DNA of 64,000 bases from Candidatus Hermodarchaeota archaeon (GCA_048885865.1 JBHLLF010000009.1:38768-102767); one strand, 5' to 3'. Positions 448-57,969 are shown, numbered from the stretch's first letter. Notes: generated from the sequence alone by a model not told the origin. Made by a program: numbers and translations.

Positions 448-846
448 ATGATTGATGAGAAAGAGATTGAGGAGATTCCTGAACTCGAAGAGATAGAAGA
501 GATTGGCGAGGATGAGGAGATCGAAGCTGTAGAGGATAGGCCAGATGCTGAGGAAGTTGAACCCGCTGAAGTCGTTCCAGAGGAAGAAATCATCGATGAA
601 CGAATCTACACAGTACCCCTGAGAAAAGCATACTGGACTGGCAGCAGACTCCGTAGGTCTAATAGGGCCGTAAGAATACTCAGAGAGTTCGTAGAACGTC
701 ACATGAAGCCCGAAGAGGTTGTGATTCAACCTGAGGTGAACGAGAGAATCTGGGAGAGAGGGATCCAGAAGCCTCCACGAAGGATAAGAATTCGGGCAAC
801 CAAAAACTCAGATAACCTTGTCCGAGTTTATCTGGCAGAGGGATAG
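448..846 (+). CDS. rpl31e: 50S ribosomal protein L31e with acidic N-terminal extension
   Basis: ERIYTVPLR...RAVRILREFVERHMK...VNERIWERGIQKPPRRIRIR. Confidence 0.95.
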   Translation: MIDEKEIEEIPELEEIEEIGEDEEIEAVEDRPDAEEVEPAEVVPEEEIIDERIYTVPLRKAYWTGSRLRRSNRAVRILREFVERHMKPEEVVIQPEVNERIWERGIQKPPRRIRIRATKNSDNLVRVYLAEG

Positions 847-9794: not shown

Positions 9795-10100
9795 ATGGAG
9801 TACGTATATACAGCACTTCTGCTCCACAAAGCAGGCCAGAAGGTCAATGCCAAGAACATGGAAGCTGTACTCACCGCTGCAGGTGTTGAAGCTGACAAGG
9901 GCAGAATCAAGGCACTTCTTGCAGCCTTGAAGGATGTTGACATTGATGAGGCTTTGAAGGGTGCAGCTATGCCAATGGCTGTCGCTGCAGCTCCTGCAGC
10001 TGGTGGCGCCACTGAGGCAGCCCCAGCTAAAGAGGAGAAGAAGGAAGAAGAGGAAGAGGAAGAAGAGGTCACTGCTGGTCTCGGTAGCCTCTTTGGTTAG
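9795..10100 (+). CDS. rpl12: 50S ribosomal stalk protein L12/P1
   Basis: [11 protein letters not shown]...EEEE...GLGSLFG. Confidence 0.97.
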
Positions 10101-10138
10101 AGTGGAACCCGATCATAAGATCAGTCCCTCTAGTGAGA

Positions 10139-10180
10139 GGGCGGGCAGGTTGCGAGCCTGTCCGCTCACCAGCGTTTTTT
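10139..10180 (+). terminator. GC-rich hairpin plus T-tract after rpl12
   Basis: GGGCGGGCAGG/CCTGTCCGCTC stem, then TTTTTT at 10175-10180. Confidence 0.65.
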
Positions 10181-10230
10181 GTCTGATTTGACCCACAGAA
10201 ACATATGCCGCCGAATCAAGACTAGATGGC

Positions 10231-11019
10231 GTGAAGATTGTATATCATCCCCTAATGCGCAATTCCTATGATGGGACTCCTGCAGGTGCATCAGGCCGAC
10301 TTGACACTGCCATTGAGATTCTAAGTGGGCATCCGGAATACGAGTTCGTTGAGCCAAGTCCTGCTACAGATGAGCAGATTCTACGAGCTCATGGTCCAGG
10401 GCATCTGGATGAGGTAAGGCGGGATACTGACTACACACGCCAAGGACTCCTTTATGAGATGGCGGCGCTCGCAGCTGGTGGAGCCATTATGACTGCCGAG
10501 ATAGCAGTGGAAGGGGAGCCTGCCTTCGGACTGATACGGCCTCCAGGTCACCATGCATCGTGGGACAGCTATTGGGGATACTGCTATCACAACAATATTG
10601 CAGTTTCACTCCTGCATCTCAAGGCACTGGCGAAGATTGAAACTGCATTTATTCTGGACTTTGACCTTCACACTGGAGATGGCAATATCAATATCTTGGG
10701 AGATAGCGAGGATTATGTCATCTATAATCCTCGAGGGCATGGAGATGATGCCTATCTGGCAGATACGAAGAGGGCTCTGGATTCCAGTCCAGATGTGGAT
10801 ATTATAGTCGCATCTGCTGGATTTGATCAGTATATTGACGACTGGGGAAGCAACCTCTCAATGGAGGCCTTTAGGAAAATTGGCAAGATGATGCATGACT
10901 TTGCCATGGAGAGATGTGAGGGCAGGAGATATGGCCTCCTAGAGGGGGGTTATAACTTTGAGGACCTTGGAAAGAACATTCTTGCCTTTTGCGAGGGTCT
11001 AAGATTAGGGACGGATTAG
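10231..11019 (+). CDS. Histone deacetylase-family (AcuC/HDAC-like) protein
   Basis: RPPGHHA, DFDLHTGDG, SAGFD, LEGGY. Confidence 0.92.
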   Translation: MKIVYHPLMRNSYDGTPAGASGRLDTAIEILSGHPEYEFVEPSPATDEQILRAHGPGHLDEVRRDTDYTRQGLLYEMAALAAGGAIMTAEIAVEGEPAFGLIRPPGHHASWDSYWGYCYHNNIAVSLLHLKALAKIETAFILDFDLHTGDGNINILGDSEDYVIYNPRGHGDDAYLADTKRALDSSPDVDIIVASAGFDQYIDDWGSNLSMEAFRKIGKMMHDFAMERCEGRRYGLLEGGYNFEDLGKNILAFCEGLRLGTD

Positions 11020-11084
11020 ATTGTGTCCCTGATATTCATGGTGACCTTAAATTACGAAGCCATGACTCACTGCTGGTGAGAGGC

Positions 11085-11333
11085 TTGCGACTATTCAATC
11101 TCCTTAGTCCATTATCAGACTTTGTAAGCATGATAGCAATTTACTTAGCTGAGATCTGGGACTTTCTAATCTTCCTTGGGAGGGTTTCAGGAGTAATTGT
11201 CATCCTTGTTGGGGCAATCCTCTGGTTTACTGAGGTCAATCCCGGTCGGGGAAAGGGATTGGTCGCCAGTGGGATACTCCTGTCAATTGTAGTGCAATAC
11301 TTCGTGATGTATCCACCATCATTCGTACTCTGA
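11085..11333 (+). CDS. Small two-TM membrane protein, TrbC/VirB2-pilin-like pattern (start uncertain: TTG 11085 or ATG 11130)
   Basis: Two hydrophobic helices joined by a short basic loop (NPGRGKG); GGTGA before TTG. Confidence 0.6.
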   Translation: MRLFNLLSPLSDFVSMIAIYLAEIWDFLIFLGRVSGVIVILVGAILWFTEVNPGRGKGLVASGILLSIVVQYFVMYPPSFVL

Positions 11334-11368
11334 CCTCATAACATCCCCGGTTTCACACACACCCGCTA

Positions 11369-11400
11369 GGCTCGGGGGCGATCTGCTCTCGAGCCACCTT
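11369..11400 (+). terminator. 3' hairpin
   Basis: 11-bp stem GGCTCGGGGGC/GCTCTCGAGCC with G-U pairs on the + strand. Confidence 0.45.
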
Positions 11401-11436
11401 CTATATAGATTACATGTTGCTCTTACCGAATTTTCC

Positions 11437-11476
11437 ATTTCCAACAAATTTATTAATTATAGTTAATATTGGAAAT
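11437..11476. promoter_or_regulatory. Palindromic operator-like site upstream of TspO-like gene
   Basis: Near-perfect palindrome TATTAATTATAGTTAATA (11451-11468), flanked by ATTTCCAA/TTGGAAAT. Confidence 0.5.
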
Positions 11477-11478
11477 TT

Positions 11479-12288
11479 ATGTCGAAGATAAATCCAATCT
11501 ACCTACAGATTGCCAATGTGGTGGCGGTTGTAGGGAGCACAGTGTTCAATGCACTAGTGAACATTCTACCTCTCAACGGGATAACTACTGGTGAGGTTTC
11601 AAATGCGTATCCTAACCTCTTCACGCCTGCAAACTACGTGTTCTCAATTTGGGGTGTAATCTACACATTACTATTCGTATTCATGTTCTATCAGATTAGA
11701 ACGAGTCAACGTGACTCACAATACCTTCAGGACATTGGATACCTATACCTACTTAGTGCTGTGATAAACATCGCTTGGCTCACGGTATTCCATTATTCAT
11801 ATCCAGCCCCCAATGATCTAATCATTCTTACAACAGTTCCCATTTTTGGACTGTTTCTGACCCTTCTCTACATCTACCTGCGATTAGGTGTTGGTGTGAA
11901 AGAGGCATCAAGGGGAGTGAAACTTGCAGTTCATTTGCCCCTGAGCGTCTATCTCGGTTGGCTATCAGTCGCAACAATTGCAAATACAGCCTCTGTCCTC
12001 AATCATCTTGGGAGGAGTCCAGAGATTCCTATCCCGATTCAGGAGACTTGGACTGCGCTAGTGATAGTGGTTGCGTTCCTCATCACGGTTCTGATGTTGA
12101 TCAGAAGAAGAGACTTTGCTTTCAGTTTCGTCGTCATTTGGGCCACAATAGGGATTGCAGCAAAACAAGCCGCTGTGCCTCTGATCTACTTCACTGCGTT
12201 GGGAGTTGCAGTCGCCATTCTTATACTCATTCTTCTACTTCCATTGTTGAAGAAAGAGGGTTTCTCAAAGTACTACATGATGGGCTGA
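11479..12288 (+). CDS. TspO/MBR-related tryptophan-rich membrane protein
   Basis: LNGITTGEVSNAYPNLFTPANYVFSIWGVIY, SVYLGWLSVATIAN; multi-TM. Confidence 0.85.
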   Translation: MSKINPIYLQIANVVAVVGSTVFNALVNILPLNGITTGEVSNAYPNLFTPANYVFSIWGVIYTLLFVFMFYQIRTSQRDSQYLQDIGYLYLLSAVINIAWLTVFHYSYPAPNDLIILTTVPIFGLFLTLLYIYLRLGVGVKEASRGVKLAVHLPLSVYLGWLSVATIANTASVLNHLGRSPEIPIPIQETWTALVIVVAFLITVLMLIRRRDFAFSFVVIWATIGIAAKQAAVPLIYFTALGVAVAILILILLLPLLKKEGFSKYYMMG

Positions 12289-12336
12289 GAGGGCGCGCGT
12301 TGGGCAAGTCTTTGCTCAGCGCACCTCTTTTATTTT
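12288..12336 (+). terminator. Hairpin plus T-tract
   Basis: Stem GCGTTGGGCAA/TTGCTCAGCGC, outer AGAGG/CCTCT, then TTTTATTTT. Confidence 0.6.
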
Positions 12337-12414
12337 CCACATGAGGTAGAAAGGTACCAGTGAGTATATCACGGACCATGACCTAAGACTCCGAAAACAG
12401 ATGATATCAGCGGG

Positions 12415-12879
12415 ATGAAAATGACTGGAAGACAAATGGATTCAAAAACTCAGGAGAAACTAGCGCAACTGTTCGATTCTCAACTGATAGCTGTATTAGG
12501 AACTTCAAGTGATGACGATCCTTACACCTGTCTTGTGGGATTCAAGTTCACATCGGACCTCAAGAATGTCATTTTTGCTACCATGAGGAATCGCTTGAAG
12601 TATCGCCAAATCAGTTCAAATCCCAGAGTTTCATTAATCATTGATGATCGGAAGAATTCTCCTTCGGACTTCAATCATGCCACATCGGTAACAATAGTAG
12701 GTACTGCAATAGACACTGAAGAACCAGAGCGTGAAAGGCTTGCAGACATGTTGGTTGAGAAACACCCGTTCCTGAAGGACTTCGTGAAAGATCCCAGCTG
12801 TGCAATCATGAAAGTCATGGTTGAGAGGATGTATATTGTTGGTGATTTTGAGAAAGTGCAGAAAATCAATATGGCATAG
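12415..12879 (+). CDS. Pyridoxamine 5'-phosphate oxidase-like (FMN split-barrel) protein
   Basis: AVLGT...PY...FAT...KYRQISSNPRVSLIID. Confidence 0.85.
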   Translation: MKMTGRQMDSKTQEKLAQLFDSQLIAVLGTSSDDDPYTCLVGFKFTSDLKNVIFATMRNRLKYRQISSNPRVSLIIDDRKNSPSDFNHATSVTIVGTAIDTEEPERERLADMLVEKHPFLKDFVKDPSCAIMKVMVERMYIVGDFEKVQKINMA

Positions 12880-12928
12880 TCTCGCCCAACCAATTCTCTT
12901 TTAAGAATATGAAAATGTGAAACAGTTA

Positions 12929-13037
12929 GGGCCCGTTGCCTAGTCTGGTTTCAGTGAGCTTTTCGCCTCTGAAAGGCACATAGGGCGCTAGCCTTCTAAG
13001 TTAGAGGTCGACGGTTCAAATCCGTCCGGGCCCGCCA
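12929..13037 (+). tRNA. tRNA-Arg(UCU) with 31-nt D-loop intron (12949-12979, position 19/20)
   Basis: Acceptor GGGCCCG/CGGGCCC; anticodon arm CTAGC-CTTCTAA-GTTAG; T arm GACGG-TTCAAAT-CCGTC; encoded CCA; strict BHB motif at the intron. Confidence 0.93.
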
Positions 13038-29494: not shown

Positions 29495-30340
29495 CTACTT
29501 CTCCTTTACACCAATAGGCTCAGATGGGTCCTCGATTTGTACTCTGAAAAGCCTCTTGACCTGAGTCAGGACAAGACGACTTCCATTGACTAATACTTCA
29601 ATCTCTATATGGTCTTGAAGACCCGAGGTCGATATCTTCTTCTCGAGAACTGCTTGGACTTGAAAGACCCCAGCCGGATTGTCCATGACCACGGTCAATC
29701 TGAGCGGCTTTTCTCCTTTGTCTAGAATTATGTCCCGAATGGCCATAGCACTGACAGAGTGTATGTCAACTTTTCCTTTCTGAAAAGGTATGATTGTACG
29801 ACCTTTTGTCAGGTCGCAACCATCGCCCAGCTTCGTGATGCCAGCCTCAAATGTCAAACATTGTGTGTCATCATCATGTGCGTATATCCCATGCGCAATG
29901 AAGCTGAGAATATCAGTTGCTTTGGCCGGATCGTCATATATCTCAACCAATTTGGATTCAAGGATAGGGATAGCCAACGACAATGATGCCTGAGGATGTT
30001 CAGTTCTATGCACAACCATTCCTATATCGTGGAGGTAGGTGGAGGCCAGTACAACAAGACGGGCGTCATCAGTGTCACCAATCCCTTCAGCTACAATGTT
30101 GGGCTGGAATGTTTCGTCCAAGATGTCAAAGGCCTTTAGTGCATTCCATGTAGCCACTTCAGCATGGACATGCCCATGGTCTGTGTATCCAAGCCTAGAA
30201 ACAGCCATCCTGTTTGCAGTCCGAAGGTATGATTGGACTTTAGGAGAGCCAGCAAGATATTGATACATCTGTAATGCCTTTGTGTTCGGAGTCAAGAGCT
30301 CTCGCGCGCTGACTCCATCGCGATTGAGGAATTCGTTCAT
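29495..30340 (-). CDS. HD-superfamily phosphohydrolase
   Basis: RLGYTDHGHVH, YLHDIG, DGCD, DIHSVSA. Confidence 0.9.
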   Translation of the reverse strand: MNEFLNRDGVSARELLTPNTKALQMYQYLAGSPKVQSYLRTANRMAVSRLGYTDHGHVHAEVATWNALKAFDILDETFQPNIVAEGIGDTDDARLVVLASTYLHDIGMVVHRTEHPQASLSLAIPILESKLVEIYDDPAKATDILSFIAHGIYAHDDDTQCLTFEAGITKLGDGCDLTKGRTIIPFQKGKVDIHSVSAMAIRDIILDKGEKPLRLTVVMDNPAGVFQVQAVLEKKISTSGLQDHIEIEVLVNGSRLVLTQVKRLFRVQIEDPSEPIGVKEK

Positions 30341-30411: not shown

Positions 30412-33390
30412 TTAAAGGTCGCCGGCTTCCTCTTGGATAGTTAAAAGAGTACGATCAATCGCACTTGTCGCCTTCTGAATCGTCTTGAGATAGTCTTGAC
30501 GGGACTTCTCGAAGGCAACTCGACTGATTCGCTGCTTCTTTTTCCGAAGCAGAAGCTGACGGAGGCCTGCCTTCGCACCTTCAATCCGCTCATTGTGAAG
30601 CTCCAACTGAGACACCATATCACGGTATCTAGCGCCATGTTTGGACAGATCATCCTTCACCTTAGGAAGATCAGAGTCAATCTTATCGAGCTGTGACTTG
30701 ATGTCACGCTCACGGATCATGAACTCTCTCTTCTTCACCTTGCCTCGCCTTCTTGCGGCTTCCAATTTCTCAAGGTCCATATTTAGAGCTGTCTTCCTAG
30801 AGTAGAGGTTTGCGAATTGGCGAAGTAGTTCTGGTGGGGCTCCGGTCTGTCGCTGATCTTCGACTTCATAGTCTTCCTCATCAAACTCACCTCTCTCAAA
30901 ATCTAAGTGCACGCCTCTATAGGAAATGTAGGCAAGAGCTAGAAGACCCACAATTACAGTGAGGCCGAGAGGCCTTGCGGCGATGAGGGGGGATACTTGA
31001 TACAGGAGCAGTATTTCTATTGGATTGTAGTTGCTTGTGTTGTACATATCATATCTCAGAGTTGTGTCAAACACACCATACAATAGTCTGTATTCTCCGG
31101 AAACGCTCAAGGTATTCACGGAATAGGGCAGAACTAGATCAACACAGTGATGCTCGATTAGGATATCGTCAAGTGCTCCAAATGGAATATCGAGAAGATT
31201 TCCCCCTACAGCGAGTTCTTCATAATCGTTGATTTGAACTATGTATTCTATGTTGAATTCATAGGAGTAGCCTGGTAGGAATTGCTGTGGCCCAAACCTA
31301 TCTTCCAAGAGGGTGATGCGTATCTGCCTAGAAGCGTTCCATTCGCCTTCTATAGTAAGTTGTGATTGAACCAGCAAACCAACTCGGTCGTAGACCTTGA
31401 CATTTGTTGAATAAGCGGGCAGTGTAAATGTGAGCTGACTTTCTGGTGACAACCCAACGTTGTCAACATGAATTGTTTCCTTGTATGAAAGCCATCCCCA
31501 AGGATCCACTCGGACGACAGTTGTACGTTCTGCAACAATGTGCGTCGTGAAAGATCTAAAAGCATTGGTAAACTCCTCAATGTTGAGAGGAGCTAGATTC
31601 GATGCAGTGGTATCTGGAGATGGATAGTTTGGAGACTGCGAGTCACCCGTTCGATATGCCATTGTGAGAGATGCGCGTCTAATGACATAAGGCACCACTG
31701 GAAACTTCAGGAATGTGAATTCATATTCCTTGTCCGTGATGTCGGTCATAGTGTTGAGAGAATGCATCTGCATTGTCACGGTAAGTATGTAGGACTCGCC
31801 ATAGCTGACAGGCTGTGCGAAATGAATGCGCCAACGTAACATTCCCCGCAGGTCTTCAAGTCGAACTATCTCTAGGTCAATGCCGTTCTGGTCCGCTGCA
31901 CTCGATGAAAGCAGGTATGATTCCCACTTCATTGGAAGATACATCTCCATTGCGGATATCACAGAAGAACCATTGTTCGTGACGGTAAATTTGTCCCTAA
32001 CGCGGGTTCTCATGTATGACTCTGTACCAATGCTTCTATCCACATCAAGTCTCATTCCAAGCAGAGGAACGAATGGACGGTCCAAATTGAAGACTACAGA
32101 AGCAATGCCGGTTGCATTTGATGGATCTGTAGCGTTGAACCAGATAGTATGAAAGCCCTCTTTGTAGCTGGTCAAATCCAAACGATCTTCCCAGAACGCG
32201 GTCTCGTAATTGAAGGTCAAATCATTCCATGATTCTTCATCATCCAATCGATATTGGACATTCTTTACTCTGGTGTTATCAGTGGCGTTGACCTCAACAT
32301 TTGCAATCCATGAGAGAGTTTCTCCAGAGGAAGGACTCTTTATGATAAGGTTGGGACCTGAATTTGGAACCAGCTGCACTATAGGAGCCTTGAACCAGTG
32401 GGTACGTTGATCAGGAATATTAGCAGTATTTTCTGTATTGCTGAACATAAAGATGAACGGGTACATGAAATCGGTGCTATTCAAGAGTGGTATATCATCC
32501 GAATCCGTAGTGTTCATGGCAATGATGTACTCCACTTGAGTGGTGCTACCATCATCTGATGCATTAGCAAACAGTATTCTGCCTTGATCAGCATCGGCAA
32601 TGTGTTGGAGTGTGCTCACACCGTGTTCATCACTGTATACAATCTGACTTGCATCAGCGGGATTCTCTCTTCTTGTCATTCCTTCTCTAGTTATTCTCGT
32701 CAGTGTTATCTCATACTCAAGGTCAAGTCCATAGAGGTCGTGAGTGGGATCAGTGTAAGCCTCTGTCGCAGGAATTATGAAGTGACGCACCTCACCAATT
32801 CTCATTCCGAAGATTGACTCTCGATACATTGCAAGCGAGGGTAGATTAGCTAGCTGCTCTGCTGATTCGTCATTCGGAAAATCGTTTTCTTGCAATACTG
32901 TGCCATTGGGAAGAGTCAGGATATAGTGAACGGTCACGGAGTCTGTGCCAATTGCCCTCCAGACTTCATCTGATGGAGCCCCAGGAGCATATCCAAAAAG
33001 CAAATCGCTATTGTTCAGCCCTGCTGTGGTGAATCTATCCGTATAGTTTTGCCAACCCACACCAATCCATCCAGAAGTTTGAGCCTCAAGTCCAAGATAG
33101 ATGTGCGTTCCATTATGTTCCATATACGCCGATATGCCAGTCACAGGATCTGTATAGCTAGATGCATATTCCCAAGGATCAATAATCCCATCAGCAGCTC
33201 CATAGTGCCGGTCCGCAAATGCAACTGATATCAGATTCGAGGACTCGGCCACTGAACTTAGCTGCGTAGCATCATGAGCCAAATTGTTAGATTCCCATGT
33301 TCCTGTTGAGGGAACCAAAGCGAGGACGCCACTTGTTAAAAAGAGCGCCATTATCGCGATTGTCCCTATCCGTCTATGCAGCAGGCTCAA
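30412..33390 (-). CDS. Ribophorin-I (OST1/RPN1)-like membrane protein with N-terminal DOMON-like, FKBP-like and Ig-like domains
   Basis: Signal/anchor at aa ~8-26. RPN1-like motifs ERTTVVRVDPWGWLSYKETIHVDNVG, LPAYSTNVKVYDRVG, FLPGYSYEFNIEY, VDLVLP. TM at aa 807-824, then a cytoplasmic coiled coil. Confidence 0.75.
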   Translation of the reverse strand: MSLLHRRIGTIAIMALFLTSGVLALVPSTGTWESNNLAHDATQLSSVAESSNLISVAFADRHYGAADGIIDPWEYASSYTDPVTGISAYMEHNGTHIYLGLEAQTSGWIGVGWQNYTDRFTTAGLNNSDLLFGYAPGAPSDEVWRAIGTDSVTVHYILTLPNGTVLQENDFPNDESAEQLANLPSLAMYRESIFGMRIGEVRHFIIPATEAYTDPTHDLYGLDLEYEITLTRITREGMTRRENPADASQIVYSDEHGVSTLQHIADADQGRILFANASDDGSTTQVEYIIAMNTTDSDDIPLLNSTDFMYPFIFMFSNTENTANIPDQRTHWFKAPIVQLVPNSGPNLIIKSPSSGETLSWIANVEVNATDNTRVKNVQYRLDDEESWNDLTFNYETAFWEDRLDLTSYKEGFHTIWFNATDPSNATGIASVVFNLDRPFVPLLGMRLDVDRSIGTESYMRTRVRDKFTVTNNGSSVISAMEMYLPMKWESYLLSSSAADQNGIDLEIVRLEDLRGMLRWRIHFAQPVSYGESYILTVTMQMHSLNTMTDITDKEYEFTFLKFPVVPYVIRRASLTMAYRTGDSQSPNYPSPDTTASNLAPLNIEEFTNAFRSFTTHIVAERTTVVRVDPWGWLSYKETIHVDNVGLSPESQLTFTLPAYSTNVKVYDRVGLLVQSQLTIEGEWNASRQIRITLLEDRFGPQQFLPGYSYEFNIEYIVQINDYEELAVGGNLLDIPFGALDDILIEHHCVDLVLPYSVNTLSVSGEYRLLYGVFDTTLRYDMYNTSNYNPIEILLLYQVSPLIAARPLGLTVIVGLLALAYISYRGVHLDFERGEFDEEDYEVEDQRQTGAPPELLRQFANLYSRKTALNMDLEKLEAARRRGKVKKREFMIRERDIKSQLDKIDSDLPKVKDDLSKHGARYRDMVSQLELHNERIEGAKAGLRQLLLRKKKQRISRVAFEKSRQDYLKTIQKATSAIDRTLLTIQEEAGDL

Positions 33391-33575
33391 TCCAAATCAC
33401 CGTGATTCAATAGGGTCCGCGGTATACTGTATACTAGATAGGCCGCGAACGATGCGCTCGAACCTCTGGATTCGTTAAATAGGTTTCGTCATGCAAATCG
33501 TTGTACCACTGCATTCTTCTATCCGAAAAGTGTAAAAAAGGGCTGTATTTGTGCCCGGCAAAGGAGACAGCCCAA

Positions 33576-34583
33576 TTGTTAAACGTCCTCATAGTCATCA
33601 TTCTTGCATTCTCAATAGTACTCCTTGCCATGCCTAGTACAATCCGGATTCTAAAAGAAAAGGGCATAGTAGGAGTGGATGTCCACAAACTCGACAAGCC
33701 AGATGTGGCGAAAGGAGGGGGATTTGTAGTTCTGTTTGCTATAGTAGCCTCCCTGCTAATCGTGATTGGAATAACAACCTTTCAGGGTCAAGAAGTTGAT
33801 ACAGGACTCTTAGCTGCATTGGTTTCAATCCTCCTCGCAGGGATGATTGGGCTATTGGATGACAATCTTGACTTCAGAAATAGGACTAAGATAGCGCTTC
33901 CAATGCTTGCATCAATCCCAATGATGGCCATGCAGGTGGGTACAACCACAATGTCAATTCCATTAATTGGAACTGTTGACTTTGGCGTACTCTATCCTCT
34001 TGTGGTCATTCCTCTTATGATGACGTTCATTATCGATTCCACCAACATGTATGGAGGAATGAATGGCTTGGAGGCAGGTCTCTCGACAATTAACTCTGCA
34101 GCTCTTATTCTATATGTAGTGCTCCTATCGCTCATTGACGGAGTCGAAACAACGCAGGCACTTCTTGACTCAGGTGTAGTGGCTGGAGCGCTTCTTGGTG
34201 CATCCACTGCTTTTCTCATCTTCAACAGGTATCCTGCAAGGATATTGCCTGGAGACGTTGGGAGACTTCCAATGGGTGCAGCAATAGCTACGGCACTAAT
34301 TTTAGGAAACATGGACAGACTGGCTATTTTCCTTTATGCACCATTCGGTCTCAATTTTCTCCTATACATCTTGTACAGACTCTATGTACACCGTAGAGGA
34401 ATAGAATATGTGAAGTTCGCCAGTCCAAGAGAAGACGGCACTCTCGAGGTCGAGGGCCCATTCACTATGTACTGGATGCTACCATATCTTTCAGAGAATG
34501 TAACCGAAGAGAGAAACGTTGCTCTGTTGATACTACTACAAGCAGTAATTGCGTTTGGTTCAGTGTTCCTGCTGGCATTTTAA
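33576..34583 (+). CDS. UDP-GlcNAc:dolichyl/polyprenyl-phosphate GlcNAc-1-P transferase (AglH/ALG7/DPAGT1-like, MraY-like family)
   Basis: GVDVHKLDKP.VAKGGG, IGLLDD, NMYGGMNGLEAG, FNRYPARILPGDVG. TTG after GGAG taken as start (the ORF is open from 33501). Confidence 0.85.
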   Translation: MLNVLIVIILAFSIVLLAMPSTIRILKEKGIVGVDVHKLDKPDVAKGGGFVVLFAIVASLLIVIGITTFQGQEVDTGLLAALVSILLAGMIGLLDDNLDFRNRTKIALPMLASIPMMAMQVGTTTMSIPLIGTVDFGVLYPLVVIPLMMTFIIDSTNMYGGMNGLEAGLSTINSAALILYVVLLSLIDGVETTQALLDSGVVAGALLGASTAFLIFNRYPARILPGDVGRLPMGAAIATALILGNMDRLAIFLYAPFGLNFLLYILYRLYVHRRGIEYVKFASPREDGTLEVEGPFTMYWMLPYLSENVTEERNVALLILLQAVIAFGSVFLLAF

Positions 34584-44492: not shown

Positions 44493-46748
<2,256 letters not shown>

Positions 46749-50956: not shown

Positions 50957-52747
50957 CTAGACATCCATTTTCAGCTTTTTGATGCGGTCTTTGGTGGGTC
51001 GCCCCTCTTTGTCCCAGCCCCTAAGGGAATAGTATTCTGTAAGCATGGTATCCAGATGAACTACGCGATCTCTGGAGTTGCCCTCTGGAAGTGGACTGAA
51101 GAATCGAGGAGGTAATTGGTCATCCTTAGTTGTTAAGCCTTCACGGTTGTTGAACATGCGCTCTAGATTATAGATGCGTTCGCCAATTTCAAGAATGTCT
51201 CGTCCACTTACTTGGAGGCCCGTGCCAGCGGCAAGGAATTCTGCATAATCATCAACTGTCCAAGCAAAGTTTGTGAACCGACAGAGAATCATTGAGTCCA
51301 TCACAGCAGAGAGGTTCTGATAGAGAATGACAAGATCAGCTTTCCCTCTTGGACTGTCTCGGTCAACCCTGACCGGACTCCCAAGAATCTCAGGACCAAT
51401 TAGGTATGACCGCAGGTGACAGCCGCCTCTATTGGACGTGGCATAGCCGAGGGCATGACCTTGAGCTCCCCGGGGATCATAGGCAGGAAGCTCCAGACCC
51501 TTTGCATGCATTGCTAACTCTGGAGCGCCGTACTTTTCTGCAAACGCTCGACTTCCTTCTCCTAGTTCAGCTCCAAGACCGCGGGCATGTCCCATGTCCC
51601 GTATTATCTCAATGAGACCCTCTGTTTCTCCAAACTGCAGAGGCGCATCAATCTTGCCTCTCTGCGCGAGTTCCATGGCACATCCTATAGTAGCACCAAC
51701 CGAGATCGTGTCAAGTCCAAGTAGATTACACTCATGATTGGCCAGGGTGATCCATTCTAGGTCGTTTATTCCACACTGGGGCCCAAAAGCCCAGATGGTC
51801 TCGTACTCTGGACCGCCAACCTCCTGATTGCCCACCCGGCTTATACGACCACACCCAATGGGACAGCCATAGCAGTTGTACCTTCCAACTAGCAGTCTCT
51901 CAATGAGTTTCTCTCCAGAAACTCCCACTGCATCATTGAATGTTCCTTCTTGGAAATTGTGGGTGGGTAGCATACCAAACTCATTGGTCACATTAACAAG
52001 GACAGACGTCCCGTAGATGGGAAGCGACTTGTCCGTCACAGCGTTCTTCTTGAGAAGCCGTCTTGCCCGCTTGACAGACTCCGCCAGTCTTTCTTTATCA
52101 TCTACTCCAATGCTTCCAGTACCTCTCACAACGATGGCCTTCAGGTTCTTCGAACCCATCACGGCACCTACCCCACCACGACCTGCAGCTCTATGCTTGT
52201 CCGTCATGATGGCAGCCAGATTGACTTTGTTTTCTCCTCCTGGGCCAATACATGCCACCTGTGCCTTTGAATCGGTTTCTTCTAGAAGCATGTCTGTACT
52301 TTCATACACATCTTTGCCCCATACCTTCGAGGCATCACGGATTTCGACCTGCTCGTCGTTAATCCATAGATACACTGGTTTGGAGGCGGCTCCTTCGAAG
52401 ATGATGGCGGCATAGCCTGCGCGACGGAGCTGTGCACCTATATAGCCTCCAACATTCGAGTCGAATATTGTACCAGTGAGAGGAGATTTTGTAATTACCT
52501 CAAGCCTGCCTGCAGTAGGAACAGGCATTGCTGTGAGGGGTCCAATAGCAAACACAAGGAGATTCTCAGGGGAGAGTGCATCTATTCCTGGGGATAGCGT
52601 GTCGTAGAGAATCTTGACGCCTAGACCTCTGCCTCCAAGATAGTTTCGATACAAGTCTTCTGGGATTGACTCGGTGGTGATCTTTGACTCCGAAAGGGAC
52701 ACTCGAAGAATCTTGGCATCAATATATGATATGGGTGAATCTGACAT
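50957..52747 (-). CDS. aor: Tungsten aldehyde:ferredoxin oxidoreductase
   Basis: YLGGRGLG, KSPLTG, AAGRGGVGAVMGSKNLKA, CYGCPIGC, PEYET, GLDTIS. Confidence 0.95.
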   Translation of the reverse strand: MSDSPISYIDAKILRVSLSESKITTESIPEDLYRNYLGGRGLGVKILYDTLSPGIDALSPENLLVFAIGPLTAMPVPTAGRLEVITKSPLTGTIFDSNVGGYIGAQLRRAGYAAIIFEGAASKPVYLWINDEQVEIRDASKVWGKDVYESTDMLLEETDSKAQVACIGPGGENKVNLAAIMTDKHRAAGRGGVGAVMGSKNLKAIVVRGTGSIGVDDKERLAESVKRARRLLKKNAVTDKSLPIYGTSVLVNVTNEFGMLPTHNFQEGTFNDAVGVSGEKLIERLLVGRYNCYGCPIGCGRISRVGNQEVGGPEYETIWAFGPQCGINDLEWITLANHECNLLGLDTISVGATIGCAMELAQRGKIDAPLQFGETEGLIEIIRDMGHARGLGAELGEGSRAFAEKYGAPELAMHAKGLELPAYDPRGAQGHALGYATSNRGGCHLRSYLIGPEILGSPVRVDRDSPRGKADLVILYQNLSAVMDSMILCRFTNFAWTVDDYAEFLAAGTGLQVSGRDILEIGERIYNLERMFNNREGLTTKDDQLPPRFFSPLPEGNSRDRVVHLDTMLTEYYSLRGWDKEGRPTKDRIKKLKMDV

Positions 52748-55656: not shown

Positions 55657-57969
55657 GTGTTGGATAAGAATGAAACCTACGTGAATGGATCAATGATCCG
55701 AAAAGATAGTGTTGATTATCGAGCGTATCAGGTCAATCTTGCTGAGGTCGCCGCCAGAGAAAGTACGATGGTAGTTCTTAGCACGGGATTGGGAAAGACC
55801 GTAATTGCAGCGTTAGTGGCTGCAGCGCGTCTGACTCAAAATCCAAAATCAAAGGTCCTGTTTCTGGCACCTTCTCGACCTCTTGTGGATCAGCAGGCTC
55901 GGTATCTAAGGAGGGTTCTGGATATCGATGCTGAACATGTAGTATGCATGACTGGACATGACACCCCTGAGAACAGGCGCTCAATGTGGAGTGAGGCTAG
56001 AGTCTTCGTAATGACTCCGCAGGCTCTGCAAAATGATCTAGTGCAGAGGAGCTATGGGCTCCAAGAGGTTTCTCTGATTGTATACGATGAGGCACATAGG
56101 GGTGTGGGTAACTACGCATACACCTTCGTTGCAGAGCTATATGAGAAACAAGGAACAGACCAACTGTCCCTTGGTCTCACTGCATCTCCAGGCCACAAGG
56201 CAGACCATATCAAGACCGTCTGCAAGAATCTCCGTCTTGGTCGTGTTGAGGTTCGTACTGAGAAGAGCCCAGATGTACGTGACTATATTGTTTCCATAGA
56301 TACTGACGTCAGATATGTCAGGTTACCGTCTGAGGTCGAGGTCCTAAAGGACATTCTCTATGGCCTGCTCGACGAATACAAGAAGCCGATTCTTGAAAAT
56401 GGATTCTCTTTGCCCGACAGCCGGCGGCTAAGTCGGAAGGAGATTTTGAAAGTCCAGAAAGAGGTAAGGAAAGAGATTGGATCATACACCAAACCTCCCA
56501 GCAGTCTATTCCTGGTTATCAGGAACTTGACGGCGGCTCTTAGACTCGTTCATCTAATTGAGTTCATAGGCACTCAAGGCCTCACACCTACATATCGATA
56601 CATCCAAGGGATATACGAGGAAGTCCGTCACAAGAAGAGCTCTAAGGGTGTCAAAGACCTAATATCAAAGACTGAATTCAGTCAGTTTGAAAATCTTCTG
56701 AAGGCGCTCATAGACAAAGGACATCGACATCCAAAGGCTGATGCCATTCTTGAACTTGTGAGCGAGCAGCTGTCGGTGGATTTGGACTCGCGCATTCTTG
56801 TGTTCACAAGGTTTCGAGACACGGCTATGGAGGTCGTAGAAACTCTAGAACAGCTGAGAGATGCGAGAGTAAGCCGATTTGTAGGACAGAGCTCTCGACG
56901 TACAGACAAGGGATTCAGCCAGAAGAAACAGGTCGAGGTCCTTGAAGGATTCCGGAATAACGAGTTCAATGTATTAGTGGCCACACAGGTTGGGGAGGAG
57001 GGCCTTGATATCCCAGAGTGTAACTTGGTTGTGTTCTATGACTGCGTACCATCAGTAGTTCCTTACATCCAACGTAGAGGAAGAACAGGACGAAAGACAC
57101 CCGGTCGTGTAGTGATTTTTGTAGCCAGAGGAACTCACGATGAGTTCTATCACTGGAGTGTGATTAGGAAATTGAAGAAGATGCCAGATGCTCTAAAGGA
57201 GGCCGAGAAGGACTCAGATGAGGAGCAGACGAGCCTAGAGGACTTTGTGAGCGAAGATGACGAGTCTATGCACTCGCTTGAAGAGAAACCAACAGGTGCT
57301 CCAAGTTCGACTGATGATGCAATCAAGATGATTGTTGACTCTAGAGAGTTGCCAACTGCTGTAGCCAGGGAGCTTACTCGACTGGATGTAGAGATCTCTG
57401 GAGAGAGCCTGCAGATTGGGGACTATGTCATTTCTGAAGATGTCTGCGTTGAAAGAAAGGAGTCGGGAGACTTCATCCAGTCTCTAATAGATGGCAGGCT
57501 CTTCGTGCAGCTCTCGGCACTACGTTCATCGTATCGAAGACCTGTCCTCATAATTGAAGGAGAACAGCTGATAGGATTGCGAGCGGTGAACCCCGCATCA
57601 ATATATGGCGCATTGGCATCGATTGCTATTCGGATTCAAGTTCCCACGCTCTGGACTCGCAATGCAGAGGAAACAGCAAATGTCCTCTATCGGTTAGCAC
57701 ACCTTGAACAGGTAGGAGCAAAGAAGACGTTGCGAACCAGGTCAGGGGATGCTAGAGCCACTGATGCAGAAGCGTTAGAATACGTCTTATCGGGATTTCC
57801 CGGGGTAGATACAGTCATCTCAAGGGCTATCCTTTCCGAATTTGGGACTCTGGAGAATGTCTTCTCAGCTAGTGAAAAGGAACTGCAGAGCGTAAAGGGA
57901 GTGGGAAAGAAAATAGCCAGCAGAATCAGAACTCTTCTGACTACCGAGTATCCATCATACAGGGGCTAG
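55657..57969 (+). CDS. hef: Hef (FANCM-like) SF2 helicase-ERCC4 nuclease
   Basis: TGLGKT, DEAH, TAS, QRRGRTGR, VDSRE...GDY...VERK, HhH. Confidence 0.95.
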   Translation: MLDKNETYVNGSMIRKDSVDYRAYQVNLAEVAARESTMVVLSTGLGKTVIAALVAAARLTQNPKSKVLFLAPSRPLVDQQARYLRRVLDIDAEHVVCMTGHDTPENRRSMWSEARVFVMTPQALQNDLVQRSYGLQEVSLIVYDEAHRGVGNYAYTFVAELYEKQGTDQLSLGLTASPGHKADHIKTVCKNLRLGRVEVRTEKSPDVRDYIVSIDTDVRYVRLPSEVEVLKDILYGLLDEYKKPILENGFSLPDSRRLSRKEILKVQKEVRKEIGSYTKPPSSLFLVIRNLTAALRLVHLIEFIGTQGLTPTYRYIQGIYEEVRHKKSSKGVKDLISKTEFSQFENLLKALIDKGHRHPKADAILELVSEQLSVDLDSRILVFTRFRDTAMEVVETLEQLRDARVSRFVGQSSRRTDKGFSQKKQVEVLEGFRNNEFNVLVATQVGEEGLDIPECNLVVFYDCVPSVVPYIQRRGRTGRKTPGRVVIFVARGTHDEFYHWSVIRKLKKMPDALKEAEKDSDEEQTSLEDFVSEDDESMHSLEEKPTGAPSSTDDAIKMIVDSRELPTAVARELTRLDVEISGESLQIGDYVISEDVCVERKESGDFIQSLIDGRLFVQLSALRSSYRRPVLIIEGEQLIGLRAVNPASIYGALASIAIRIQVPTLWTRNAEETANVLYRLAHLEQVGAKKTLRTRSGDARATDAEALEYVLSGFPGVDTVISRAILSEFGTLENVFSASEKELQSVKGVGKKIASRIRTLLTTEYPSYRG

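Follow-up and report, generated by a model that had tools for sequence, protein, structure and literature searches.

Conservation of ribophorin I extends from Asgard archaea to humans, yet the role of its large lumenal domain is poorly understood. The crystallized cytosolic domain of the homologous OST1 from Prometheoarchaeum MK-D1 (8WHN) has been shown to form a four-helix bundle, to share its topology with the corresponding domain of human RPN1, and to retain ribosomes in pull-down experiments (PMC11417166). Papers on the Asgard translocon, that study among them, treat OST1 as a canonical subunit of the oligosaccharyltransferase (OST). In human cells, FKBP11 is anchored in the membrane with its FKBP on the lumenal side; it binds to translocons that carry ribosomes, beside OST-A, and contacts the ribosome through a basic cytosolic helix (PMC12804085). 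Malectin is reported to act in glycoprotein quality control by binding ribophorin I (PMC9144812). Here we analyze a stretch of 64,000 nucleotides from Candidatus Hermodarchaeota archaeon (GCA_048885865.1 JBHLLF010000009.1:38768-102767), called the window below. One gene on its minus strand was identified with high confidence, in both identity and architecture, as a Thorarchaeal OST1/ribophorin I with an N-terminal extension. About 400 residues precede the ribophorin I domain, and these comprise a DOMON domain with an FKBP in one of its hairpins, followed by an immunoglobulin (Ig)-like domain.

The gene and its parts are listed here in the order of the protein, with the evidence in brackets.

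30412..33390, minus strand: whole gene, extended OST1/ribophorin I of a Thorarchaeota genome (open reading frame list, translation, homologs)
33301..33390, minus strand: N-terminal signal peptide or anchor, aa 1-30 (hydrophobic window aa 7-30, TTG start)
32962..33228, minus strand: N-terminal half of the DOMON domain, aa 55-143, with the motifs HYGxADGIIDPxEY and TSGWIGxxW (VIA-align, hhalign)
32686..32958, minus strand: FKBP domain, aa 145-235, inserted in a DOMON beta-hairpin (Pfam FKBP_C, Foldseek, VIA-align)
32371..32685, minus strand: C-terminal half of the DOMON domain, aa 236-340 (same alignments as for the N-terminal half, reaching model residues 298-301)
32077..32355, minus strand: Ig-like domain of Big_7 type, aa 346-438 (Pfam PF17957)
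30991..32058, minus strand: ribophorin I lumenal (here extracellular) domain, two beta-sandwich lobes, aa 445-800 (AlphaFold2, Foldseek, Pfam)
30907..30990, minus strand: single transmembrane helix, aa 801-828 (hydrophobic window 799-828; long helix at model residues 366-396)
30415..30846, minus strand: cytosolic OST1 C-terminal domain, aa 849-992 (phmmer and profile matches to 8whn_A)

An initial annotation, made from the DNA before any database search, had already proposed this order of domains, and its anatomy held throughout when examined with Pfam, AlphaFold2 (AF2) with Foldseek, VIA-align, hhalign and a profile of the C-terminus. The signal or anchor and the transmembrane helix that it named correspond to the only two hydrophobic segments of the protein (aa ~7-30 and ~799-828), and the Ig-like domain that it placed at aa ~343-438 was recovered as Big_7 at aa 346-416 with 35.3 bits. 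It had also pointed to two RPN1-like lumenal repeats, to DOMON halves on either side of an FKBP, and to that FKBP itself; aa 445-800 were found to match ribophorin I, and aa 145-235 to take the FKBP fold.

The gene is a single open frame of 992 codons plus stop (30412-33390, minus strand; open reading frame list and translation) and starts with TTG. This start is probably right, because homologs conserve the sequence from residue 2 of the family consensus onwards. A word-indexed search with the 992-aa protein returned 222 near-full-length relatives; the 120 listed are mostly 930-1001 aa long, with a few shorter or labeled as partial, and share 49-100% identity with it. Named relatives among the matches listed are from 'Candidatus Thorarchaeota' or 'Promethearchaeota' archaeon, and once from 'Hodarchaeota'. 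Their database names read 'FKBP-type peptidyl-prolyl cis-trans isomerase', 'Ig-like domain-containing protein' or 'hypothetical protein', and no ribophorin or OST1 label was found among the names shown; name-based surveys would therefore miss the Thorarchaeal OST1. Family statistics were taken from 30 diverse aligned members, and Pfam matches were judged against curated cut-offs. Across the 30 members, FKBP_C was matched in 28, Big_7 in 20, Ribophorin_I in 10 and DOMON in two. Two pieces of the protein, aa 45-345 and aa 436-832, were folded with AF2 from 30-sequence alignments.

The assignment to ribophorin I comes from the fold. The AF2 model of aa 436-832 (predicted local distance difference test, pLDDT, 89.2) consists of two beta-sandwich lobes followed by a 31-residue helix. 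Its eight best PDB matches in Foldseek are all human or yeast RPN1/Ost1, with E-values of 1.8e-21 to 1.8e-16 and TM-scores by query of 0.65-0.73, in agreement with the proposed pair of lumenal repeats. Human RPN1 is matched by 8b6l_O (E 1.8e-21, TM-score 0.73) and 6s7o_E (5.1e-20), and yeast Ost1 by 7oci_A (1.0e-18). The next match, an unrelated integrin, follows at 6.8e-7; the RPN1 fold match is 14 orders of magnitude better than unrelated beta-sandwich proteins. Pfam Ribophorin_I (PF04597) matches aa 651-767 over model positions 258-366 only (24.9 bits against a cut-off of 25, E 1.3e-5), and 10/30 close family members match it at E <= 0.01, the best at 4e-8. A profile of the RPN1 part gave no RPN1 match among PDB sequences, the best hit being an unrelated FN3 fusion at E 2.2. 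Since only the fold search matched RPN1, the eukaryotic protein is out of reach by sequence alone.

The cytosolic end of the protein was easier to place. The C-terminal 150 residues match 8whn_A at E 2.6e-5 with a single sequence (phmmer), and a profile of aa 800-992 matches it at E 5.6e-21, the next match being tropomyosin at 0.013. Of the 'cytosolic coiled coil' named in the initial annotation, the cytosolic domain stood, and the coiled coil was refined to the four-helix-bundle domain of OST1. The bundle has a net charge of +12 (34 Lys and Arg against 22 Asp and Glu). The topology is that of a type I membrane protein, with the ribophorin I domain outside, one transmembrane helix, and the four-helix bundle in the cytoplasm.

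In the extension, the FKBP segment is the part best recognized by Pfam. FKBP_C (PF00254) matches aa 149-217 with 21.3 bits against a cut-off of 21.1, and 28/30 members match, the best at 4.7e-11. When the model of aa 45-345 was searched with Foldseek, only FKBP was found (probability 1.0; best TM-score by target 0.74-0.75, to human FKBP2/FKBP13); MIP is matched as well, and FKBP11 of the translocon structure 9N9J (9n9j_A) ranks among the best fold matches of the inserted domain. VIA-align, a fold search independent of Foldseek, aligned FKBPs (FKBP2/FKBP13, SlyD) with Z 11.1-11.6 and a root-mean-square deviation (rmsd) of 2.0 to model residues 97-194 only, which are aa 141-238. The segment that had been proposed as FKBP, nt 32686-32958, is exactly aa 145-235. 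A SlyD-like FKBP with an insert-in-flap (IF) chaperone domain was considered and rejected, as the alignment covers the FKBP core only.

The FKBP pocket was compared with FKBP12 by mapping positions through ungapped HMMER alignments to Burkholderia MIP and wheat FKBP73. Three positions (FKBP12 numbering) are kept: Y26 as Y156 and Y82 as Y212, both in 30/30 members, and H87 as H217 in 27/30. Three more are replaced conservatively by residues that are invariant (30/30): I56 by L186, W59 by Y189 and F99 by Y226. Because the residues of the aromatic cradle are kept or conservatively replaced, the pocket appears to be under strong selection. Other positions are changed, namely F36 (to L, I or M), D37 (to Q, 27/30), F46 (to S, 26/30) and V55 (to A, L or S). 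D37 is the FKBP12 residue most tied to catalysis. The earlier impression that several active-site aromatics are substituted was only roughly right: F36 and F46 have changed, whereas Y26 and Y82 are kept, and W59 and F99 have become invariant tyrosines. Peptide binding by this pocket is more likely than efficient isomerization. The ortholog from the sister family, P0125 (975 aa), has a more canonical FKBP (50.8 bits) in which the Y...F-D motif is kept.

The FKBP is predicted to sit within a DOMON domain. The AF2 model of aa 45-345 has a pLDDT of 84.7, and the nesting is modeled with confidence. The top VIA-align match is the gamma subunit of ethylbenzene dehydrogenase (Z 15.5, 168 aligned residues, model span 10-298), followed by NxrC (Z 14.8), the DOMON domain of dopamine beta-hydroxylase (Z 13.5), cellobiose dehydrogenase cytochromes (Z 12.1-11.0) and CBM9 (Z 11.8). 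The DOMON alignments span model residues 10-298, yet only ~140-183 residues are aligned; because they span the whole model but skip the FKBP, the FKBP is taken to be an insertion within the DOMON sandwich. When the family profile was compared by hhalign with aa 379-538 of P0248, an uninterrupted second DOMON of a Hodarchaeales protein, the match was 99.0% (E 6.7e-18) with the FKBP as one long gap. That segment of P0248 scores 43.9 bits on Pfam DOMON (PF03351; cut-off 32.7). Pfam DOMON itself did not match aa 45-145 or aa 236-345 even at E <= 10, and among the 30 family members it matched two (best 0.0012); a linear DOMON hidden Markov model is handicapped here because the nested FKBP splits the domain. 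DOMON membership of the two flanking halves rests on the modeled fold (VIA-align Z 15.5-11.8) and on the transitive profile match. A fold search of the Atlas aligned 163 residues to a DOMON cluster (rmsd 2.0) and returned no other cluster with a nested DOMON-FKBP, and the Atlas feature search gave a weak lead only (0.75) to a DOMON/EB_dh cluster.

P0248 and P0286, Hodarchaeales surface proteins of 602-618 aa, contain two uninterrupted DOMON domains that are separated by bacterial TSP3-type repeats, with a transmembrane anchor at the end. Their DOMON domains share the motifs H-x-G-x-x-DG...EY and TSGWI with the host domain and are its closest uninterrupted relatives found.

The Ig-like domain that follows is matched by Big_7 (PF17957) at aa 346-416 with 35.3 bits against a cut-off of 24.1 (E 1.9e-8), and in 20/30 members. 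Its relatives occur as repeats in giant proteins of up to 4703 aa.

The distribution of the architecture was surveyed in 400 Asgard genomes, as the initial annotation had suggested, and the fusion proved to be confined to one order. The complete DOMON-FKBP module was found in 81/85 genomes from the window's family and, for a sister family of the same order, in its only genome (1/1). It was absent from the genomes outside the Thorarchaeal order, in whose families partial matches to ordinary FKBPs or to DOMON halves were observed. The ribophorin domain was detected more widely, in 238/400 genomes. Its frames measure 981-1034 aa in the two Thorarchaeal families, barring one of 1233 aa and those cut by contig ends, and ~580-650 aa in every other listed match. 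In 82 genomes both modules lie in one open frame without stops. In a representative search of 1.84 billion proteins, many of those returned are ~550-625 aa long and align to no more than aa ~445-988, and the top 150 matches showed no DOMON-nested FKBP outside Thorarchaeal-type relatives. Three of the ~550-625-aa proteins were checked and match Ribophorin_I at 51-62 bits; two of these are named as Odinarchaeia and Asgardarchaeia. Judged from sequence, the ~550-625-aa proteins are the canonical Asgard OST1, and the Thorarchaeal protein is the same with ~400 N-terminal residues added. Because it is confined to one Asgard order, the fusion is best seen as a lineage-specific innovation and not as an ancestral eukaryote-like trait.

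Conservation along the protein was expressed as the mean frequency of the majority residue. The values are 0.78 for the N-terminal DOMON half, 0.72 for the FKBP, 0.67 for the C-terminal DOMON half, 0.57-0.61 for the RPN1 lobes and 0.85 for the cytosolic bundle. Conservation is highest in the cytosolic bundle and, among the extracellular segments, in the N-terminal DOMON half. We regard the extension as real and under selection.

The signal peptide carries a conserved RR in its n-region. TatC was not found in the source genome (117 contigs, 87% complete), and because of this Sec export is likely. Tat export, suggested by the conserved RR and by heme-binding relatives of the DOMON domain, was rejected, since no TatC was found in this 87%-complete genome and the motif fits the Tat consensus poorly. 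The protein has a single cysteine, so it can have no disulfides. Thirteen N-x-S/T sequons were counted, all of them extracellular (N93, N115, N126, N162, N276, N293, N304, N368, N419, N425, N473, N685 and N784). Five of these, N115, N126, N473, N685 and N784, are conserved in 30/30 relatives; therefore the protein is probably itself N-glycosylated.

The best overall explanation of these results, to which we give a probability of about 60%, is that the gene encodes an OST1 with a folding or ligand-binding station built into the OST. By homology, OST1 is expected to sit beside AglB/STT3 and SecYEG, and its cytosolic bundle, as the homolog of the MK-D1 domain, would dock translating ribosomes at the translocon. 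The conserved aromatic pocket of the FKBP would bind, and possibly isomerize, proline-containing segments of chains emerging from the channel. The DOMON part would have a ligand of its own, which by the example of the related CBM9 is most likely a glycan. In this way the site of glycosylation would come with a built-in means of assisting folding or of retaining substrates, with the extension as a holdase or a reader. The roles of the FKBP pocket and of the DOMON domain are plausible on grounds of analogy and conservation. That the extension acts in nascent-chain or glycan handling at the translocon is, by the same analogy, put forward tentatively. To view the protein as a one-polypeptide analogue of quality control in the endoplasmic reticulum (ER) is a reasonable hypothesis. 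The most specific version, a convergent one-polypeptide counterpart of both FKBP11 at the translocon and malectin on ribophorin I, in which chains exiting SecYEG are held, isomerized or checked while they are glycosylated, is less likely than not.

Several observations weigh against an OST1 with such a built-in station. The Pfam Ribophorin_I score of the window protein is 0.1 bit below the curated cut-off. The placement of the extension near SecY or AglB is putative. Isomerase activity is doubtful because D37 has become Q and because F46 and V55 have become small or polar residues. The best structural matches of the DOMON domain are heme-b proteins and not lectins. Copies of the module that stand alone in a few genomes imply that it can work away from OST1. 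The Asgard lineages that are closest to eukaryotes lack the fusion. In the case of FKBP11, a partner buries the pocket, which acts as an adaptor surface, and a prolyl-isomerase role has been argued against (PMC12804085).

The stand-alone copies bear on the strongest of the alternatives, which is possible but unlikely: that the extension is a general cell-surface module (for envelope organization, adhesion or an external ligand) for which OST1 is only the membrane anchor. Two genomes of the window's family have a second, shorter module frame, of 586 and 598 aa. The matches and the gene of one stand-alone paralog are located as follows.

G318, contig C23, 20716-21600: second module match
G337, contig C125, 6294-7160: second module match
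L010, 6001-7761: gene of P0133, a stand-alone paralog without the ribophorin part

P0133 (586 aa), P0134 (567 aa) and P0129 (572 aa) each consist of a signal peptide, DOMON(FKBP), Ig, further sequence and a C-terminal transmembrane anchor of their own, and P0133 and P0134 show a Ser/Thr-rich stalk. Over 411 residues, P0133 shares 40% identity with the window protein. In L010 its gene adjoins genes of carotenoid-type biosynthesis (SQS_PSY, amino oxidase, UbiA and Caroten_synth). That the module comes with its own anchor, and in two cases with a stalk, is what a surface function would lead one to expect; so are the repeats related to the Ig domain in giant proteins of up to 4703 aa, and the related uninterrupted DOMON in an anchored Hodarchaeales protein with TSP3 repeats. 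Yet the fusion to OST1 is fixed and single-copy in 82/86 genomes of the order, conservation is higher in the N-terminal module than in the RPN1 lobes, and a random anchor would not be expected to be a ribosome-docking OST subunit in every genome. A quick maximum-likelihood tree was built from the N-terminal modules; in it, the stand-alone copies lie on long branches inside a subclade of fused genes (Shimodaira-Hasegawa approximate likelihood ratio test, SH-aLRT, 99), with the fused gene of the sister family outside; the tree is midpoint-rooted and subject to long-branch caveats. From this tree the fusion appears to go back to the ancestor of the order, and the stand-alone genes appear to be later offshoots, which counts against a surface module that merely borrows OST1. 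A stand-alone module as the ancestral donor likewise found no support, as the copies nest within the fused clade, with the same caveats of a quick tree and long branches.

An alternative view of the DOMON domain is improbable: that it binds heme b, which would make the extension a redox module outside the cell, coupled to the translocon, and not a lectin. Heme-b DOMON proteins do lead the structural matches (gamma subunit of 2IVF, Z 15.5; NxrC, Z 14.8; cellobiose dehydrogenase, Z 12.1-11.0), but members without heme are close behind (dopamine beta-hydroxylase DOMON, Z 13.5; CBM9, Z 11.8). Candidate axial ligands are conserved, with H92 and H263 in 30/30 members, H62 in 29/30 and M315 in 28/30, although their equivalence to known heme ligands is putative, as is the substitution of the heme Met proposed in the initial annotation; W108 and W113 are also among the conserved candidate ligand residues. 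No TatC was found in the 87%-complete genome, which suggests that the chain is exported unfolded by Sec, and b-heme would then have to be inserted outside the cell; because of this a b-heme cofactor is mildly disfavored.

The surroundings of the gene and the remaining OST genes of the source genome bear on whether the protein belongs to the OST at all. OST1 and STT3 are a textbook pair, and in eukaryotes the contact also involves Ost5. Searches of the genome with Pfam Ribophorin_I and with profiles of either half of the protein gave one match each, always the window gene, and with these three queries a second, canonical OST1 was not found in the 87%-complete genome. The following features were located.

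Contig C40 of the source genome, 2229-3470 (match): STT3/AglB, open reading frame of 919 aa
Contig C40 of the source genome, 7472-7792: OST3/6-like gene (OST3_OST6 match), ~4 kb from STT3
33501..34583 of the window, plus strand: GT4 gene of the polyprenyl-phosphate HexNAc-1-phosphate transferase family, AglH/Alg7/WecA/MraY-like (Pfam Glycos_transf_4, E 3.4e-27)

The STT3 and OST3/6-like genes are on a different contig from OST1. The GT4 gene, which also has weak MraY/WecA matches in NCBIfam, is head-to-head with the OST1 gene across ~110 bp (33391-33500), and the same pair was found in two other Thorarchaeal genomes, one for each family sampled. A longer block (NMD3, eIF1A, RIO1, KH, topoisomerase VI B/A, GT4 in reverse, OST1 and a protein of 281-289 aa) is kept in the sister-family genome and in a relative with 57% identity. 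These findings strengthen the link to N-glycosylation, since the gene is the sole OST1 found, STT3 and OST3/6-like genes are present, and the pairing with GT4 is conserved.

It could still be proposed that the protein is a ribosome-tethering SecYEG accessory with a built-in chaperone, independent of AglB, which has the OST1 fold and is not an OST subunit. The most conserved part being the cytosolic domain, homologous to the ribosome-binding bundle, would suit such an accessory, as would a gene unlinked to STT3 and OST3/6 (other contig), and the MK-D1 study stresses the recruitment of ribosomes to the translocon (PMC11417166). We give this little credence in view of the conserved head-to-head pairing with a GT4 gene of lipid-linked glycan synthesis, and because RPN1/Ost1 is part of the OST in every matched eukaryotic structure. 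The notion that the long open reading frame is an artefact of assembly or gene calling that joins two genes has a negligible chance of being right and was rejected: frames of the same length (932-1001 aa) occur in >100 independent assemblies, 82 genomes have both modules unbroken, and the nesting is confidently modeled.

Other observations were made at the locus. A repeat in the shared intergenic region, GTATACTGTATAC (33422-33434), is unique in the window and absent at two other Thorarchaeal loci; its reading as a conserved operator was dropped, since it is missing from both compared loci. Directly downstream of OST1 lies an open reading frame of 281 aa (29495-30340, minus strand) with no Pfam or NCBIfam match, in which we noticed HGHVHAE and LHDIGM motifs that resemble those of an HD-type metal-dependent phosphohydrolase. 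A gene of 281-289 aa without Pfam match holds the same place in the loci L008 and L009. In the sister-family locus L009, two more genes are found near OST1 (9985-13017), one of the actin family and the other with weak or faint Pfam matches to BBS2/BBS7 beta-propellers. Elsewhere in the window are a CDC48/VCP-type AAA ATPase (44547-46748, plus strand), an aldehyde:ferredoxin oxidoreductase (50957-52747, minus strand) and a Hef-like helicase-ERCC4 nuclease (55657-57969, plus strand).

No description of this architecture was found in a literature search (DOMON with Asgard; Thorarchaeota with oligosaccharyltransferase and FKBP), whose coverage left most subscription journals outside. Each part of the protein comes from a family already described; the novelty lies in how the parts are combined and in the placement of an FKBP within a DOMON domain. 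The welding of FKBP and DOMON onto ribophorin I, with better conservation than its own lobes, may be regarded as a natural fusion experiment, and it suggests that the lumenal position of ribophorin I serves the handling of nascent chains or glycans. If this is true, the fusion, as a Rosetta-stone clue, would mark the lumenal domain of ribophorin I as a platform for the handling of nascent chains. The parallel with FKBP11 and with malectin-RPN1 suggests that the coupling of folding factors to the OST is recurrent and not specific to the ER. The order that carries the fusion is not the closest relative of eukaryotes, and the fusion informs on mechanism and evolvability, not on direct ancestry. 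The nested DOMON(FKBP) is a compact, confidently modeled unit of ~300 residues.

Compared with eukaryotic RPN1/Ost1 (8B6L chain O, 6S7O chain E; 6EZN, 7OCI chain A), the window protein has the same two-lobed sandwich, transmembrane helix and cytosolic helical domain in type I orientation, at only 14-15% identity. It differs in ~400 extra N-terminal residues, which none of the matched eukaryotic RPN1 proteins has, and in its place in the cell membrane and not in the ER. The Lokiarchaeal OST1 of Prometheoarchaeum MK-D1 (WP_147663064.1, 8WHN) is homologous to it over aa 445-988. In canonical Asgard OST1 (~560-650 aa), the RPN1 domain comes directly after the signal peptide, whereas the DOMON-FKBP-Ig extension was found in the Thorarchaeal order only. 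Members of the DOMON superfamily (2IVF_C, 7B04_C, 4ZEL_B, 1D7C and 1I82) have the same sandwich (Z 15.5-11.8, 140-183 aligned residues), which is here interrupted by a whole FKBP. SlyD of Thermus is matched in its FKBP core (Z 11.6, 84 aligned), and both proteins involve domain nesting with an FKBP; in SlyD, however, the FKBP is the host and the IF domain the guest, while in the window protein the FKBP is the guest of a DOMON host and there is no IF domain. That alignment takes in 84/157 SlyD residues over chain residues 1-137, and part of SlyD within this range has no counterpart here.

In the ER quality control of animals and plants, malectin and ribophorin I form a pair in which a carbohydrate-binding beta-sandwich module works through ribophorin I (PMC9144812). 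Malectin is a separate protein of another fold family, while glycan binding by the DOMON domain described here is putative. FKBP11 (9N9J/9YGY) is a separate small protein that is dynamically recruited, whereas the FKBP of the window protein belongs covalently to the OST1 chain itself and lies within a DOMON domain. The two are alike in that an exoplasmic FKBP would stand by the OST together with a basic cytosolic element for the ribosome (fold match E 3.8e-5, Z 10.4), a likeness of analogy and not of orthology.

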